A stretch of DNA of 64,000 nucleotides. Origin: Candidatus Bathyarchaeota archaeon (GTDB taxonomy: Archaea; Thermoproteota; Bathyarchaeia; Bathyarchaeales; Bathycorpusculaceae). Positions 26,545-33,832 of this stretch are shown piece after piece; position 1 is the first letter of the stretch, and every line of letters starts with the position of its first letter. Position numbers and translations under genes: made by a program. The notes under the pieces are model-generated. The model did not search any database and was not told the DNA's origin. It worked only from the letters and a program-made list of their open reading frames with translations. Location of the stretch: NCBI GenBank assembly GCA_963715865.1, contig OY970280.1, forward strand, positions 640,001-704,000, in the 5' to 3' direction.

Positions 26545-26799
26545 CATTCTTGTGAATGCTACGGCTGCAATGAAAGTATCGACAGCCATTCTGCCAGAAA
26601 CTTGTACTGGCAGCTGCTCGATACCTACACGAGAGCATAAAAATTTATTAGCTCAGCCCGTGCGTTTTTCTCTCCTACAAAAGCTGCCGGACATAGACAG
26701 AGAGAAACTTGAAAATGAGAAAAGAGAAGGAACTTCGTGATACATTGCTCACGTGTAATATTATCGTAGTGTAGTCTTATCGTGATAATGAGGCAATGG

Positions 26800-26973
26800 A
26801 TTAAATTTTAGTCCCCCTCCTCCTCCTCACTACGACGACGGTGACCTGCCTGAGTAACAGTGGCTTGAGAAGACGGCAGGGCATCAGTATATCCTTTTCA
26901 GGATAGGGATATACAGATTAGAGAATCAAAGGTAAAAATTACGCGTATATCCCTAAGGGTAAAAGGATATACT
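26800..26973. repeat. Hairpin unit U1 (~175 bp)
   Basis: ATTAAATTTTAGTCC at offset 0, TGACCT at +42, then a 29-bp imperfect inverted repeat (26886-26914 / 26945-26973). Confidence 0.8.
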
Positions 26974-27202
26974 CGCAATTTGACTCCCGAAAAATCGAAC
27001 GTGTGCGCGCTAATCTATTTTTTGATTCATATTTTTGATTCATAAGGCTTATTTTCTTTGAACCTCAAAAACTTAACGAAGACACGTAGAAACTGGAACG
27101 CGAAGGCATGTTTTACAAGCTCCCACCGAGAGAGAACTAAATGAAAAACCAAAAGAAACGCCAAAAGGAACGGCGAAAGCAAATTTTAGAAAGTTATTAA
27201 AA

Positions 27203-27325
27203 ATGAAAGCTAATGATAAATGTCCTTCTTGCAGTTCAACTGAGACCGAAACCGTCTATGAAGGCGAATTGGTATTAAGTGTTTGCAAAGTTTGCCGAGT
27301 AATGCGGTCAAAAAGCTGGTTTTGA
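27203..27325 (+). CDS. 40-aa zinc-ribbon microprotein (below the ORF-track cutoff)
   Basis: MKANDKCPSCSSTETETVYEGELVLSVCKVCRVMRSKSWF contains two CxxC pairs. Confidence 0.55.
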   Translation: MKANDKCPSCSSTETETVYEGELVLSVCKVCRVMRSKSWF

Positions 27326-27357
27326 AAAATACCCCTACCCTAAAACAATGCGTGTGA

Positions 27358-27534
27358 ATTAAAATTTAGTCCAACCAACCAACGGAAAACTACTCAGAAT
27401 GACCTTCTGAAAGGACTTCGCAGGACAGTATACTCGATTCAGGCCATATAGTCTATGAATGTACTCAGAAGAGACAGGGTAGTAATAGAAATCAAGTCAT
27501 TATAGGATATGGTATAGTCGGAATCGAGTATACT
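27358..27534. repeat. Hairpin unit U2 (~177 bp), homologue of U1
   Basis: ATTAAAATTTAGTCC at offset 0, TGACCT at +42, and a perfect 14-bp inverted repeat AGTATACTCGATTC (27427-27440) / GAATCGAGTATACT (27521-27534) with imperfect inward extension. Confidence 0.8.
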
Positions 27535-27591
27535 CTATTTAAACAAGAAAGCCCCACTTCCCCTTCTCTCAGCCAAGAGTCGGAGTTTCTC

Positions 27592-27798
27592 CTACTCCAA
27601 AGGCTCGACCTTGCGCTTGTGATAAAGCTTGCATTCTTTCACAACGGCGTTTCTGTATTGCGACGTATATGCTATGCCCATACTGGTCATCGAAATCAAC
27701 GGCAAAGCCGAATCATAACGCCTTTCTCTGTACTCGGGGCAGCCTTCGCACTGATCTGGAAAGTCTCTGAAGCAGGATTCATGCCTTTGCATTCCCAC
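27592..27798 (-). CDS. Small Cys-containing hypothetical protein
   Basis: 68 aa with an ATG start preceded by GGGGAGT. Contains C...CEGC...C. Confidence 0.5.
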   Translation of the reverse strand: MGMQRHESCFRDFPDQCEGCPEYRERRYDSALPLISMTSMGIAYTSQYRNAVVKECKLYHKRKVEPLE

Positions 27799-28069
27799 TC
27801 CCCTAATAAACTATTTGACGACCCAAATATTTAAGCCAATCTAAATCCCGCCATACAGTATTGCTCTATCAAGGCATCGGTGCCGTTTTTGTATAACAAC
27901 TAACTAAGAAATTTTCCACCCTTTCAAGGCAAAGAGCGAAATCCAAAATGAAAGTCCGCGAAGAATTGGGTGCCCGCTTTAACATCATAAAAGCATACTC
28001 AAAGTCAAAACTTTGCAATTATGTCGCTCCATCTCCACCAAATTGGGCTTGCAGACAAAACTAGTCTTA

Positions 28070-28171
28070 CGTTAATTCAGGTTCTGTTAAGTTGGTGTGG
28101 GATTTTTCTCGGTGTTAAGTTTCGTGGGATACGGATTTTTGCGAGAATGCCACTGTTAACTTTCGTGGGAT
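28070..28171 (+). repeat. Left 102-bp end with three TGTTAAGTTTCGTGGGAT-like repeats
   Basis: Copies at 28085-28103, 28113-28130 and 28154-28171. Inverted homologue of 32928-33029. Confidence 0.9.
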
Positions 28172-28281
28172 AACTAAGTTTAGTAGCCAAAAGCGTAAAT
28201 TCACAATATATGATTCTATGCAAAGTTTTATGAAGGAAAAGAGAAGATTAATTTCTTGGTGTAGTAAATTGATAAGTTGTC

Positions 28282-28614
28282 CTAATTTTCTTCCCCGCCT
28301 TTTTCTGATTCCTTAGTCTCTTTGCCCTCAGAATCTGCAGTGGCATTTTGTTCACCTTCGGCACTTTCGCCCGCACCCGCATTTTCGTCTTTTCTCTTTT
28401 CCTCGTCTTCGTCCTCTTTCTCTTCGTCCTCATCTTTCTCTTTGCCCGATTCTTCGTCCTCTTTGTCATCTGATTTCTTGGGTTGCTGCTGGGGCTGTTT
28501 TTGCTGTTTTTGCTGTGAAGGCTGTGGTTGTGCTGTTTCATCACTGCCTTTCGGCTTTATTTCAGTCACTTTTGGGGGCTCTTCTTTCGATTCGTTTGGT
28601 GGGTACGAAAGCAT
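28282..28614 (-). CDS. Acidic/Gln-rich low-complexity (likely disordered) protein
   Basis: QPQPSQQKQQKQPQQQ followed by DDKEDEESGKEKDEDEEKEDEDEE. Confidence 0.55.
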   Translation of the reverse strand: MLSYPPNESKEEPPKVTEIKPKGSDETAQPQPSQQKQQKQPQQQPKKSDDKEDEESGKEKDEDEEKEDEDEEKRKDENAGAGESAEGEQNATADSEGKETKESEKGGEEN

Positions 28615-28735
28615 GTACCGCTGGGATGCGCTTAATTATTTAAGCGAATCCGAGTAGTTGATTTAGGAAAGTTTTAAATTAGTTGGGTGCCAATCTTACT
28701 GTGTAAGATATTTAAGTCTTACTGGATGGGAAAAC

Positions 28736-29197
28736 ATGACCTTAAGCTTGGGATACTTGACTGCTAAACAAAAAATGATCTGGGACCTAAAAAGCAGAGG
28801 ACAACAAGAAGCCAGCATCGCAAGAAAACTCAACGTCACCCGCCAAACAATTCACAGTGTCCTCGACACCGCCAACCTCAAAATCGGCGAAGCCCTACAA
28901 GAAGTAGCAGAAATCAACAAAATCGAAGTCGAAACCCTCGACCCAAACAGAGGATTCCTCAAAGGATACAGCAACCACTTCAAAACCCAAGCCTTCGTCA
29001 CCTTCTCAGCCAAAAACGGCATCCAACTCTGGTACAAACACGAAGGCGACTGCGAAAAATGCCAAAAACTCCAAACCTGCCGAGAAACCCTGCTCTCCGA
29101 GGCAAAAGACCGCAACTTCCTACTGTTAGATGATACGAGCAAGATTTTGCCATCCAAATTAGCAGAAGCCCTATTCACAAAAATCACCGGTGAATAA
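28736..29197 (+). CDS. HTH transcriptional regulator with C-terminal Cys cluster
   Basis: LTAKQKMIWDL...EASIARKLNVTRQTIH (HTH), then HEGDCEKCQKLQTC. Confidence 0.8.
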   Translation: MTLSLGYLTAKQKMIWDLKSRGQQEASIARKLNVTRQTIHSVLDTANLKIGEALQEVAEINKIEVETLDPNRGFLKGYSNHFKTQAFVTFSAKNGIQLWYKHEGDCEKCQKLQTCRETLLSEAKDRNFLLLDDTSKILPSKLAEALFTKITGE

Positions 29198-29199
29198 AA

Positions 29200-31473
29200 A
29201 TGGGTATGCGTAAAAGATTTAGGGATTTTAGAGATTGGTGTCCCCAGCCGCCAGATCGTCTGCCTACAAAACTGAAACATTATTCTGCTCCAATTGCCGT
29301 TGTTCTCTCTGTCACGCTTTTCTTGGTTTCATTCTCTGTGTTTTTCTCAAGCTACGTTTTCCATCCTTCTATGCCACAAGTACCCCTGCCAATAGTTAAC
29401 GTAATATCTTCATCGACTGAGCCTCCAGCGTTGAACTGGGTCTCGACGTTTGGAACGGGTCTTAGCGATTCAGCTTCAAAAGTGATTCAAACCAGCGACG
29501 GCGGATACGCAGTGATAGGTACATTAGGAAACGGCTATGCACCGAGCACCGCGATGCTTGTCAAGACCGATTCCTCTGGAAAAATGCTTTGGAACCAAAC
29601 CTACGATTACTTATACAGTGGCATTGCTGTGGTGCAAACAAGCGATGGAGGATACACTATAGCGGGTAATGGCAACGATGGCGGCTTCATGCTTGTCAAA
29701 ACTGATTCAAAGGGCAATGCAATATGGAACCAAACTTACACGGTTTCTTACCAAGGAAACAAAGGTGGAGACGCCTTAACTATGACTCAGACTAGCGATG
29801 GCGGCTACGTTATAGCTGGCGCTTGCACGCCATATCTTTTAGGTGAAGGGTCAAATAACGCGTTTGTTCTCAAGACGGATTCGTCGGGGAAGATGCAGTG
29901 GAGCAAGACCTATGGAGGGTCAGGAATCGACTTTTTCCGTTCAGTGGTTCAAGTCAGTAATGGAGACTATGTTTTGGCAGGTTGCACAACCTCATTTGGG
30001 GCAGGAGGTTTTGATGCTTGGCTAGTAGAACTTAACTCATCTGGTAATCAACTCTGGAGCAAAACGTATGGAGCAGGACCCACGTCCAATCCAACACAAC
30101 CACAAACGGGAACAGTGGGCGATGATGAGGCAAACTCGGTAGTGAAAACGAGCGATGGATTCGCTTTAGCGGGATATACCTATTCCTTTGGTTTAGTCGG
30201 CGCTAAAAACGCTTGGCTTATAAAAACCGACGCTTCAGGCATCATGCAATGGAACAAAACATACGGTGGGCAAGAGCAATCTGCGGCAAATTCACTTATT
30301 AAAACAAGTGATGATGGATTGGCGTTTGCTGGTTCAACGTTAGTTAATACAAACTGGGGTCTTATTGATGATATGTGGCTTGTTAAAACTGATTCATTTG
30401 GAAATAAGCAGTGGAACCAAACCTTTGGCGGAATGACGGCTACTCCAGACACTGACATTGCGAATTCGCTTATCCAGACAAGCGATGGCAGCTTCGTTCT
30501 TGCAGGGTCAACAAACCCAGGAAGCACAAGCCATGGCGGATACTACTATGTAGTGAAAACAATGTCAGTTGAACCAAGTCCGCTTCCCACACCACAGACA
30601 GCTGGCAATGCAGTAATCAATACTGACGGTTCAGTAACGGGCACCAATGTTATTGAGCAAATCGGTAGTACCTACGTTTTAACCGCTAACATTCCCAACG
30701 GTATCGATGTCCAGAAAAGCAACATCATAATAGACGGAGCAGGCTACACGCTTGACGGAAACGGCACTGGAGGAATAGACTTAACAAACGGGGTAGGACA
30801 AGACCCAACAAGGTCAACAATTAGCAACGTAACAATCGAGAACTTGCATATTCTAAATTGTGGCAACGGAATAACTACTAATGGCGGTGGCAACGATACT
30901 TTCTACGACGATTACATATCAAATTGTACTTGGGACGCATGTATCATGCTAATAGGCGACTGTGATTACAATAACATTACGTTTTGCACCCTTAACGGTT
31001 CAAATGGCACAGAAGCAATAGGAATGGTTTATGGAGCGAATTATAATGGTACAATAACAGAAAATAACATCATGGGTGGCGTTATGCTATGGTTAAGTGT
31101 GGGCGGAAACGTTGACAGAAACTATTGGAGCGACTACTTAACAAGGTATCCAAACGCTACAGAGGTCGGTTCTTCAGGAATAGGAAACACACCATATGTA
31201 TATGCAACAGGTTATCAAGATAGTCATCCGCTAATGAAACCCGTCGCAATTCCGTTAAAAGGCTCAAGCCCTGAGTCTATACCTACGTCGTCTTCTTCAT
31301 CTGCGTCGTTTAACACTTTGTTCATTATAATTGGGGTGGTAGTTGCATTTGTTATTGTTGCCGCAGTGGTTTTCTTAATGTTTCAAAAGAGACTGAAAAC
31401 TAAAACGAAAAATCCACCAACTACACCGCAGAACTCTACCTCAGTTTCCTCTGTTCAAATATTCCAAAGATAG
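29200..31473 (+). CDS. Membrane-anchored surface protein: N-terminal WCPQP peptide, TM, ~7-blade beta-propeller, right-handed beta-helix, C-terminal TM
   Basis: Seven TSDGGY..AG...LVKTDS.G...WNQTYG repeats, Asn-rich NVTIENL/NITFC/TITENNI coils with a NYWSDY motif, and a C-terminal TM followed by KRLK. Confidence 0.85.
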   Translation: MGMRKRFRDFRDWCPQPPDRLPTKLKHYSAPIAVVLSVTLFLVSFSVFFSSYVFHPSMPQVPLPIVNVISSSTEPPALNWVSTFGTGLSDSASKVIQTSDGGYAVIGTLGNGYAPSTAMLVKTDSSGKMLWNQTYDYLYSGIAVVQTSDGGYTIAGNGNDGGFMLVKTDSKGNAIWNQTYTVSYQGNKGGDALTMTQTSDGGYVIAGACTPYLLGEGSNNAFVLKTDSSGKMQWSKTYGGSGIDFFRSVVQVSNGDYVLAGCTTSFGAGGFDAWLVELNSSGNQLWSKTYGAGPTSNPTQPQTGTVGDDEANSVVKTSDGFALAGYTYSFGLVGAKNAWLIKTDASGIMQWNKTYGGQEQSAANSLIKTSDDGLAFAGSTLVNTNWGLIDDMWLVKTDSFGNKQWNQTFGGMTATPDTDIANSLIQTSDGSFVLAGSTNPGSTSHGGYYYVVKTMSVEPSPLPTPQTAGNAVINTDGSVTGTNVIEQIGSTYVLTANIPNGIDVQKSNIIIDGAGYTLDGNGTGGIDLTNGVGQDPTRSTISNVTIENLHILNCGNGITTNGGGNDTFYDDYISNCTWDACIMLIGDCDYNNITFCTLNGSNGTEAIGMVYGANYNGTITENNIMGGVMLWLSVGGNVDRNYWSDYLTRYPNATEVGSSGIGNTPYVYATGYQDSHPLMKPVAIPLKGSSPESIPTSSSSSASFNTLFIIIGVVVAFVIVAAVVFLMFQKRLKTKTKNPPTTPQNSTSVSSVQIFQR

Positions 31474-31600
31474 TTTTTGCACTTAGGAATCAAGATTGTA
31501 GCAGCTGGTACTGGAGCAACCTCGAAAGCGCGGTTGAACGTATGATAAAAAACAATAAAAAGAAAAAACGCAACTTAAACGATGATACAAATCAGTCAAC

Positions 31601-32015
31601 AAGCATCTTGCAGACAAGGATTTTGAAAGATTGAAATGGAGAATCGGCTGGGCGCTTTCGGAACTGGATGAGCTTAGCAGGAAGCTGCTTGAGGACGGCT
31701 TGGATACGGTTGCCCGCTTTATCAGGAACTCAGCTAACTACATGGTTACGTTTGCGAAGCTAGCTGTGAAAGAGGTTTGCATTCCCATCACGAATAATCT
31801 CGTTGAGCGTTTGATGGGTGAGATAGCTAAGCGCATTAAGCATAAGTGGATGCATTGGAGCACGAGGGGGCTGGAGAATCTGCTGAACATTCTTTTGGCG
31901 AGATACTGCAGTAGACGCGTCTACGATGAAATGAAAGAAAGATACTTAAGCCCAAACACCACACAAATCCAAATAGCGATAACGTAGGAAAGCTAGCCGA
32001 TTAGGAGACACAACC
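31601..32015 (+). mobile_element. ISH6-like transposase C-terminal fragment with possible right end
   Basis: ITNNLVERLMGEIAKRIK...WSTRGLENLL. The 5' portion is absent. TTAGGAGACACAACC after the stop may be the terminal repeat. Confidence 0.7.
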
Positions 32016-32077
32016 AAAAAAAGTTAAATCAGCATTGAAATAAAGAGTATAAATGAGGAAATAGAGGAAACTGTTAA

Positions 32078-32584
32078 GTGCAGAAAAGAAGAATCATATT
32101 GGTTTCTTTGGTGGTGGCAATCGTTGTCATAGCCACCGTCAGCTATGAATTCTTTGTAGCTAATTCGCTCTCAGGTTATACCAAAATCACCTTATCCCCT
32201 TGGTGTTACCCGCCGTGCACTGTAAAATTTGGCAATACTTCTTACTATATAGTCTTCTTTTATATTGGAAAGTCGATGGAGGAGTATCCCTCAATAAATA
32301 CCCCTCCTAATCCTTTTTTTCAAGTCACAACGGAACAGACGCTCATTATTAACTCAAACGAAAGTTTCGGAGCAATTCAAGGAGCTAGATACAGTTTTGA
32401 GGGGCTTCAAATTGTGGTAGGCAGCGTAAATGTAAATTCTAACCAATTAATCCTGTACGTCAAGTCTACCATCTCAAGCTCTGAGCCAATAATTTCTCTT
32501 ACGGCTACACCAGCTATTTCGCCTACGCCTTACCAATCATCGCCTGTTCTTGTACCTACGACGCCGCCCTACATAGTTAAGTAA
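32078..32584 (+). CDS. Exported/membrane-anchored hypothetical protein
   Basis: KRR plus a hydrophobic N-terminus and a Pro/Thr-rich tail. Confidence 0.65.
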
Positions 32585-32609
32585 TGACCCTACGTTATCC
32601 TATTCTCGG

Positions 32610-32909
32610 TTGCCATTCTTTCTTTTCGCCTTTGCCTACGCCCTAATAACTCCTATATTGGGCGTCGTGAAAGCTGATATTGGCATTAGAAACGGCGTAA
32701 TCGTTGGAATTGGAAAATCTGGAAACCCAAGCATAATGGACAATGTAACTGAAAACATGGTTGTTAGCAACTCTACAGAAGTAACGGCTGGAGAAGGATT
32801 AATCGCCACTGCTGGTTTCTTCGACACTCATGTACACTTGCCAAAAGAACAGAGAAGAGAAATTGCAATCTCTGTTCTCGTCATATCAAGTCATCGCTGT
32901 GTTTATTGA
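32610..32909 (+). pseudogene. ureC: Internal fragment of urease alpha subunit
   Basis: [29 protein letters not shown]...[22 protein letters not shown] matches the UreC N-terminal region including the first Ni-binding HxH. Confidence 0.85.
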
Positions 32910-32927
32910 CTAACAACTTAATGAATT

Positions 32928-33029
32928 ATCCCACGACACTTAACATGGAGAAAAACACCGAGCAAAACATCCCACTAAACTTAACGGAAAAACCCATCCC
33001 TTAAGAACTTAACAGAACCTTAATTCACA
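32928..33029 (-). repeat. Right 102-bp end (inverted copy) with three repeats
   Basis: Copies at 32928-32945, 32969-32986 and 32996-33014. The reverse complement begins TGTGAATTAAGGTTCTGTTAAGTT. Confidence 0.9.
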
Positions 33030-33038
33030 AACCCTATA

Positions 33039-33078
33039 TACTACTAATTCTAACTTTGTACTACTAATTCTAAGTTTG
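33039..33078 (+). promoter_or_regulatory. Tandem 20-bp direct repeat overlapping a TATA-like box
   Basis: TACTACTAATTCTAACTTTG / TACTACTAATTCTAAGTTTG, lying between TATATA (33035-33040) and the ATG at 33093. Confidence 0.65.
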
Positions 33079-33092
33079 CTGAGCGATTCGCT

Positions 33093-33398
33093 ATGAGACG
33101 ATCTAAGCTCGAAATGTATGTAGATATCCTGAAGGTCTTGGCTCACAGGGGTCCGTTGAAGCTGACGCACGTCATGTACAAGGCTAACGTCAACTGCAGC
33201 GTGCTGAAAGAGTACCTTGACTTCTTAGCTAAGCAGGGGCTGGTTGAAGAGAAAATCATTGGAAAAGAAAGAATAGTCTACATGATCACGCAACGCGGCG
33301 TGACAGTGCTCAAGCAGTTCAGAGAACTCAAAGAAGTGCTTCCCATAGTTGAAGAAACAGGAAACGAAGCAAGAAACCAAGGACCCTATTTGTTCTAA
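33093..33398 (+). CDS. Winged-HTH transcriptional regulator (HTH_45-like)
   Basis: MRRSKLEMYVDIL...THVMYKANVN...TQRG. Close paralogue of 43109-43402. Confidence 0.9.
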   Translation: MRRSKLEMYVDILKVLAHRGPLKLTHVMYKANVNCSVLKEYLDFLAKQGLVEEKIIGKERIVYMITQRGVTVLKQFRELKEVLPIVEETGNEARNQGPYLF

Positions 33399-33832
33399 AG
33401 CGCAAATTCTTTAGCGCGCCGCGCACCCACATCTAGTTTCTTTTCAAGTTTGTTTATGCGTTCCTCGATTATTCTGGTGAGGTTGTCTTCTCCAACTTTG
33501 CGGATAAACCTGCTGAGAACGCTTCTGGGATATCCTGCTTCACCAGGTTTGATGAGGCACAGTCTTCTAAGCCGCAGATCAGCATCAAGCAGCCGGGTCA
33601 TTTCTCTTAGGCTACGGACAGCTTTCATGCGCATGACGATGAAGGTTCTGAACAGCCCTATCGGGTTTCTTGGAGGCCTACCCCAGTTCAGAAGCGTGAA
33701 AGCAACCTTTCAGTACGTGTTTAGCAAAGCTTAAGTCGATGTTTCTGAAGAGGGTTTCAAGGGTCTCATGTTCATCTTGTCCCGCTGGGATTCACCTCCT
33801 AAGCTTGGACGCAACTCATTTGATACGAGGCC
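33395..33832 (-). mobile_element. IS5/IS1182-like transposase N-terminal remnant (frameshifted, truncated) with probable left end
   Basis: GRPPRNPIGLFRTF...SLREMTRLL...PRSVLSRF, with a frameshift upstream of GRPP. SD AGGAGGTG; candidate end GGCCTCGTATCAAA at 33832. Confidence 0.7.

Follow-up and report, generated by a model that had tools for sequence, protein, structure and literature searches.

A non-autonomous cargo transposon on IS6-type ends in the genome of a soil Bathyarchaeia archaeon

Insertion sequences (IS) of the IS6 family are recognized by GG tips, a cTGTt motif, 8-bp duplications of the target and a DDE enzyme of the IS240 type (PMC7986276). They are mostly 0.7-0.9 kb long (up to 1.76 kb), and two miniature inverted-repeat transposable elements and a single cargo-carrying element have been described (PMC7986276). 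Mobile insertion cassettes (MICs), such as MIC231 of the Bacillus cereus group, consist of two IS ends around passenger genes with a flanking duplication, have no transposase gene and depend on a transposase acting in trans (PMC3129680, PMC6542083). Here, a 4,940-bp element was analyzed in a 64,000-nucleotide stretch (the window) of contig OY970280.1, which belongs to a soil Bathyarchaeia genome. The segment from 28080 to 33019 is a genuine transposon insertion, and we consider it very probable that it is a non-autonomous cargo transposon carried on two archaeal IS6-type transposon ends.

Ends, target-site duplication and empty sites

A first-pass annotation of the window had reported a 5-kb segment with three identically spaced repeats per end, placed its limits at 28070 and 33029, and assigned it TG...CA termini without a target-site duplication (TSD). 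The two ends and their repeat spacing were confirmed, but the conserved ends start with GG at 28080 and 33019, 10 bp further inward, and the termini are GG...CC. The features that define the insertion are listed below.

28080..28172, plus strand: left end (inverted repeat left, IRL, "L-type"), with a GG tip and direct repeats at 28085-28103, 28113-28130 and 28154-28171
32927..33019, minus strand: right end (inverted repeat right, IRR, "R-type"), with a GG tip and direct repeats at 33014-32996, 32986-32969 and 32945-32928
28072..28079, no strand: TSD copy 1, TTAATTCA, the identical 8-mer at both element sides
33020..33027, no strand: TSD copy 2, TTAATTCA, the identical 8-mer at both element sides

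Both tips of the element read GGTTCTGTTAAG. Three TGTTAAGTTTCGTGGGAT-like units start at 28085, 28113 and 28154 in the left end, and three start at 33014, 32986 and 32945 on the minus strand in the right end, so that the start-to-start distances of 28 and 41 bp are identical at the two ends. The outermost repeat is 19 nt long at either end, and the other copies are 18 nt. When one mismatch at most was allowed, the motif GTTAANTNNNNTGGGAT was matched four times in the window, compared with a mean of 0.52 in dinucleotide-shuffled sequences, none of which (0/100) reached four. The limits of the element were also marked by comparison between species, as homology begins and ends exactly at 28080 on the left and at 33019 (minus strand) on the right. 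The left end was 80-95% identical to left ends of other species, with unrelated flanks and interior, and the right end was 91% identical to that of an intact element in a relative, genome G066. Across species, conservation was confined to the ends of about 95 bp (80-95%), and interiors and flanks differed; homology to the interior and flanks was sought at the arrays of other genomes, where the ends alone matched.

The 8 bp beyond each tip form a perfect direct repeat, TTAATTCA, read identically on the plus strand. This 8-mer is nearly palindromic, which is why the first-pass annotation had scored it as an inverted repeat and missed the duplication. Unoccupied sites were then sought by comparing the left flank with 120 genomes of the genus, two of which showed them. 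An empty site was reconstructed by joining the two flanks through a single 8-mer copy, and it aligned uninterrupted to G075:C8 (82% over 574 bp) and to G072:C23 (79% over 442 bp). The site TTAATTCA is single-copy in both alleles, and the G072 sequence ...CTTACGTTAATTCATAAAC... shows the one target copy. The element is a two-ended insertion at a target with an 8-bp stagger.

Cognate transposase and distribution of the family

The transposase that belongs to such ends was found in the intact G066 element, which has the same ends as the window element, its own 8-bp duplication (TCTTTTGT), a restriction-modification-type methyltransferase gene and a transposase open reading frame (ORF) of 396 aa (L054:9633-10823) whose stop codon falls inside the right end. 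The ORF matched Pfam DDE_Tnp_IS240 (E 5.6e-19) together with a SWIM finger, and its score on NCBIfam NF033587 "IS6 family transposase" was 135.4 bits, which passed the cut-off of 125. It also carries an IS1/IS1595-type zinc ribbon, and the SWIM and zinc-ribbon modules are both N-terminal. The order in intact relatives is left end, cargo and transposase gene, the last of which runs into the right end. Some elements were seen directly beside an end of another IS6-type element: GGTTCCGTTACC... follows the G066 duplication (L054:10847-10860), and ...CAACAGAACC precedes the duplication of a second element (L145) in its left flank. The adjoining ends at these two loci fit end-adjacent insertion.

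In the window element, as the first-pass annotation had stated, a cognate transposase is missing. All that persists is its final 26 codons with the stop codon, encoded on the plus strand of the right end (32924-33004), and the translated tail matches the tail of the G066 transposase. A longer remnant of 60 aa, proposed from a tblastn match at 32816-33001, was rejected because translation limited the homology to the right end, from 32924.

The wider family was examined in the genus of the window genome, which according to its records comprises soil and peat Bathyarchaeia. The motif GTTAANTNNNNTGGGAT occurred in 34 of the 120 genomes, with a reversed control close to zero, and the arrays were frequently located at contig ends of draft genomes, as is usual for multi-copy repeats. 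A 68-aa C-terminal fragment of the transposase was matched in 61 of the 120 genomes; about 27 of the 34 motif-bearing genomes, as read from two tables, also had a transposase match, and at 15 or more loci such a match lay within a few kb of an array. Beyond the genus, one genome per species was scanned, and the best 80 of 416 stretches encoding transposase relatives were mostly from Bathyarchaeia, the others being from Nitrososphaeria, Methanoperedens and Asgard archaea (57-75% identity). Of 79 loci, 16 had inverted ends with GG tips and an exact duplication of 8 bp, in elements of 1,983-6,126 bp. One of the 16, L103, is the G066 element. Together with the window element and two more from the genus, these loci give 19 different verified elements, which measure 684-6,126 bp and occur in Bathyarchaeia, Nitrososphaeria and Methanoperedens. 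The first-pass annotation had proposed to look for copies around an intact DDE transposase, for empty-site alleles and for TSDs at other copies; the first were found in relatives (G066), the second in G072 and G075, and the third as exact 8-bp duplications in 18 relatives.

Every end of the verified elements contained 2-3 copies of the terminal site, and the second copy started at position 33-35 in 31 of 36 ends. A comparison of terminus and internal repeat by their tails was used in place of an ungapped one: the tail (3' half) of repeat 2 matched the element's own terminus in 25 of 36 ends, compared with 18% for the termini of other elements. The site thus co-varies in sequence with the element, as would be predicted if each transposase binds the sites of its own element. 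Within the subgroup from Bathyarchaeia, hardly any variation was seen in the terminal 14 nt or in repeats 2 and 3, while the spacers varied, and left-type and right-type ends were distinct from each other and conserved across species. Judged from these patterns, the 18-nt repeats are best read as putative transposase-binding sites, which is how the first-pass annotation had interpreted them.

The cargo of the relatives was varied and often consisted of restriction-modification genes. Sets of N6_Mtase, Methylase_S and HSDR_N genes were present in four elements, and other cargo included a GmrSD-HNH enzyme, DprA with a ParB-N protein, an AAA_14/DUF4143 ATPase with an N6_N4 methylase, and an NYN protein. 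The smallest element, in genome G086 (L058:7325-8008, 684 bp, duplication TGTCTTAG), has no transposase; its left tip is fused to about the last 68 transposase codons, after which comes an AlaE-like fragment. The element precedes by 33 nt a 223-aa ORF, which by eye we take to be a proteasome beta-subunit gene.

In the 2.35-Mb genome that holds the window, arrays were present at four places only: two form the window pair, one is a solo end (601.8 kb) and one is an end at 622.2 kb. The G066 transposase has two matches in this genome, and both are broken: one (C1:623568-624302, minus strand, aa 127-371, 84% identical to the G066 enzyme) is N-terminally truncated, and the other, at 1,430.1-1,431.1 kb, is frameshifted. 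With no transposase gene of its own and both related genes broken, the window element is stranded and immobile at present. The truncated gene and a two-repeat end (622228-622279, plus strand) form a decayed second element, C1:622228-624302, about 16-18 kb before the window start, and the solo end (C1:601822, minus strand) has three repeats. Ends of a second subgroup, with GGTTCTGTTACCTCT... and a repeated TGTTAC...GTCTG site, were observed on the minus strand at C1:547016, 547173, 612772 and 1432665. Another copy with cargo is suggested by one of these ends, located 1.5 kb downstream of the frameshifted transposase.

Several points weigh against the interpretation as a non-autonomous IS6-type cargo transposon. 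The element contains no transposase gene, and a search of its own genome with the G066 enzyme found no intact cognate transposase. The evidence that transposase binds the repeats consists of conservation and co-variation, and an ungapped comparison of terminus and internal repeats against shuffled sequences was significant in 0 of 38 ends, because the outer copy is 1 nt longer and the register shifts. Published IS6 members have inverted repeats of 15-20 bp and one cargo exception (PMC7986276), and one review argues that the archaeal "IS6" elements are a separate family (PMC6807381).

Cargo, insertion site and alternative origins

The remaining features of the element and the neighboring gene are as follows.

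28282..28614, minus strand: acidic low-complexity ORF of 110 aa, gene status uncertain (ORF list; no Pfam or NCBIfam match)
28736..29197, plus strand: cargo helix-turn-helix (HTH) regulator of 153 aa with a C-terminal Cys cluster (weak HTH matches)
29200..31473, plus strand: cargo membrane-anchored surface protein of 757 aa (translation; internal DNA repeat families D1-D3)
31631..31987, plus strand: C-terminal fragment of an ISH6-family transposase (NCBIfam NF041731, E 6.9e-34, profile positions 312-413 of 414)
32078..32584, plus strand: ORF of 168 aa with an N-terminal hydrophobic segment, matching no known family
32637..32873, plus strand: urease alpha-subunit gene (ureC) fragment, residues ~73-150 of ~568 (Pfam Urease_alpha, E 1.1e-16; TIGR01792, E 2.7e-24)
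33028..33398, plus strand: neighbor outside the element, CAAACCC and TATATA (33035-33040) before a 101-aa winged-helix gene from 33093 (Pfam HTH_45, E 1.8e-18)

The weak matches of the 153-aa regulator were to CENP-B_N (E 0.0027) and Tfx (E 2e-4), and its gene family is multi-copy in the genus with 82-89% nucleotide identity. The 757-aa protein is arranged as an N-terminal transmembrane segment, beta-propeller repeats of about 50 aa, a beta-helix-like region and a C-terminal transmembrane segment; its match to the SBBP beta-propeller family (E 3.7e-9) was under the family cut-off. Close relatives of the two genes as a pair occur in several congeners (72-89% nucleotide identity), and a nucleotide homology search listed no further copy of the pair in the element's own genome. 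The ISH6 fragment, the C-terminal quarter of a transposase, is debris of an unrelated IS. The ureC fragment was only 81% identical to a ureC-like sequence of its own genome at about 208.6 kb, which is unannotated here, and 82-84% identical to congeners. The divergence of this fragment and the relatives of the HTH/surface-protein pair in congeners suggest that the content of the element was put together in another host. Rfam and tRNA scans (24-36 kb, 20-40 kb of the window) gave nothing relevant and no tRNA; one sub-threshold antisense Rfam match lay over the ureC fragment.

Upstream of the winged-helix gene, the sequence resembling a transcription factor B recognition element (BRE) and a TATA box points to a putative promoter, beside which the element is inserted. 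A TATA-like box was located 3-8 nt past the duplication, on one side, in most of the 19 verified elements. When, as a strict criterion, a window with A/T at 7 of 7 positions was required at offsets 3-16, 9 of 19 elements were positive, the share among random sites of these loci being 13% (binomial p = 3e-4), and in 13 of 19 an outward-reading ORF started 28-93 nt away on the TATA-like side. A tendency to insert just upstream of a TATA-like box is suggestive but not proven, as the ORFs are unvalidated and the elements related.

The stretch that separates the insertion site from the HTH_45 gene start contains a tandem pair of 20-bp units (CTATATACTACTAATTCTAA and CTTTGTACTACTAATTCTAA, 33034-33078), which overlap the TATA-like box; the same units occur in G072 and one of them in G075, and they may be an autoregulatory operator. 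Just downstream of this gene, a 79-aa fragment of an IS5-type (DUF772) transposase is located at 33395-33634 on the minus strand, so that the region holds debris of three IS families when the ISH6 fragment inside the element is counted. The left flank is gene-poor (26740-28070), and its part 27024-27382 is 83-87% identical to several congeners.

A possible course of the insertion can be outlined from these features. Each end of about 93 bp has a GG-tipped terminal site and two further copies of the 18-nt site at fixed distances, and the three sites might bind several transposase subunits, probably through the zinc-finger and HTH N-terminus of the enzyme, and so build a synaptic complex. The cognate IS6-type DDE transposase would have been supplied in trans, or formerly encoded inside the element and then lost. 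It would have linked both tips to a target cut with an 8-bp stagger at TTAATTCA, directly in front of the BRE/TATA-like promoter of the winged-helix gene, and the 8 bp would thereby have been duplicated. In this course of events, the element imported the HTH regulator and surface-protein pair, together with the ISH6 and urease-gene fragments as junk. A possible chemistry is an IS26-like one, with replicative cointegration and subsequent resolution (PMC7986276), which is putative for archaeal members (PMC6807381).

Among other origins, it is possible, if somewhat doubtful, that a complete transposon with cargo and transposase was inserted here and lost the transposase gene in place, and that the element did not arrive as a cassette mobilized in trans. 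The position of the transposase gene in intact relatives is now occupied by the junk (the ISH6 and ureC fragments and the small ORF), and a 5.2-kb element in genome G120 likewise retains only transposase fragments. On the other side, the transposase homology breaks off precisely at the inner limit of the right end, which would better suit a cassette of ends alone; the 81% identity of the ureC fragment to its own-genome counterpart makes a recent pickup here improbable; and relatives without transposase but with perfect duplications exist, the 684-bp G086 element being one.

Kinship to IS21, Tn7 or Mu, as proposed by the first-pass annotation, or a wholly new family with TG...CA tips and multiple binding sites, would account for several direct repeats per end and for the difference between left and right ends. 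This origin is very improbable in view of the GG...CC tips and the 8-bp duplication, and the only transposase found between such ends, the cognate one, is of the IS6 type. In the subset of TSD-verified elements whose ORFs were searched with profiles, no IstB-, TnsB- or MuA-like gene or helper ATPase was identified.

An invertible or site-specifically recombined segment between recombinase-binding arrays had been the other suggestion, and the inverted arrays do flank a segment with a surface-protein gene. It is hardly credible, since the direct 8-bp duplication and the empty-site alleles contradict inversion, the same ends enclose unrelated DNA of 0.7-6 kb in other genomes, and no recombinase match was obtained in scans that covered ORFs of the element and, up to about 6 kb away on each side, the larger ORFs. 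Equally slight is the chance that the arrays are transcription-factor operators duplicated in inverted orientation around fixed genes: they are short conserved direct repeats with fixed spacing near an HTH gene, but they are tied to no gene family, are paired with duplications, stand beside IS6-type transposase genes at the 15 or more loci mentioned above and are missing from the orthologous site in two congeners. A replication origin with repeats like origin recognition boxes (ORB) was rejected, as no Orc1/Cdc6 gene was seen, the arrays are 4.8 kb apart, and the duplication and the empty site are present. The reading of the first-pass annotation that was borne out is that of a mobile, non-autonomous cargo element, given the duplication, the empty sites, the cargo and the missing transposase gene.

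Comparison with known systems

The non-autonomous cargo transposon of the window has an 8-bp duplication and GG tips with cTGTt, and the IS6-type DDE transposase was found through the G066 relative with the same ends. The short repeats, small size and lack of passengers of IS6 were not found, as the ends are about 93 bp long, the element measures 4,940 bp and it holds at least five ORFs; the intact relatives, at 2.0-6.1 kb, also exceed the described IS6 lengths. The first-pass annotation had spoken of an undescribed archaeal family. A distinctive archaeal branch was indeed found, but it belongs to the IS6 family in the broad sense. In the literature searched, there was no description of multi-site IS6 ends or of archaeal IS6 cargo elements; PMC12669027 was rejected as a source on archaeal IS6 because it concerns IS605.

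We tentatively propose, as a plausible though not yet favored reading, an IS6-related archaeal group, undescribed in the literature searched, that combines long, asymmetric three-site ends, routine cargo and targeting of positions a few bases upstream of BRE/TATA promoters. Its cargo would be mostly restriction-modification and other defense genes, here a regulator and surface-protein pair, and would move between species, also in cassettes without transposase; the promoter or factors bound to it would perhaps be recognized. If this is true, the choice of targets upstream of promoters would amount to a low-damage insertion system. IS6 is described as tiny, cargo-free and short-ended, and the archaeal branch breaks all three rules. 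It seems to be a common vehicle for defense, surface and regulatory genes among uncultured soil archaea, with Bathyarchaeia, ammonia oxidizers and Methanoperedens as hosts; a recent census detected no CRISPR-cas loci in Bathyarchaeota (PMC12669027). The three-site architecture and the apparent landing at promoters are testable features of transpososome assembly and target choice in archaea. For annotation, 28080-33019 should be treated as foreign, immobile DNA upstream of a small regulator gene.

Compared with IS6/IS26 (IS26, IS257/IS431 and IS6100), the likeness lies in the GG tips with cTGTt (GGTTCTGTTAAG here), the 8-bp duplication and the single DDE transposase of the autonomous relatives (DDE_Tnp_IS240 and NF033587). 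The differences are the three-site ends of about 93 bp with distinct left and right versions, the SWIM finger in the transposase of this branch, and the 2-6 kb length with routine cargo, the window copy having no transposase gene. The long clostridial IS6 clades (ISCpe7 group; PMC7986276, PMC6807381) resemble this branch in an extra N-terminal zinc module. With IS21, Tn7 and Mu, the several direct transposase-binding repeats per end and the non-identical ends would be a functional analogy; these systems differ in their TG...CA tips, in IstA/IstB, TnsB and MuA, and, for Tn7 and Mu, in 5-bp duplications, and no sequence or protein kinship to their ends was found in this analysis. In its organization, the element agrees with the mobile insertion cassettes, as both IS ends, passengers and a flanking duplication are present and a transposase gene is not, and it would likewise depend on an enzyme supplied in trans. 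MIC231 has ends of IS231 (IS4 family) and occurs in bacteria, whereas the window element has IS6-type multi-site ends, occurs in an archaeon, is larger (4.9 kb) and holds several genes plus IS debris. The element is a transposase-less cargo cassette of an archaeal IS6 branch with multi-site ends.

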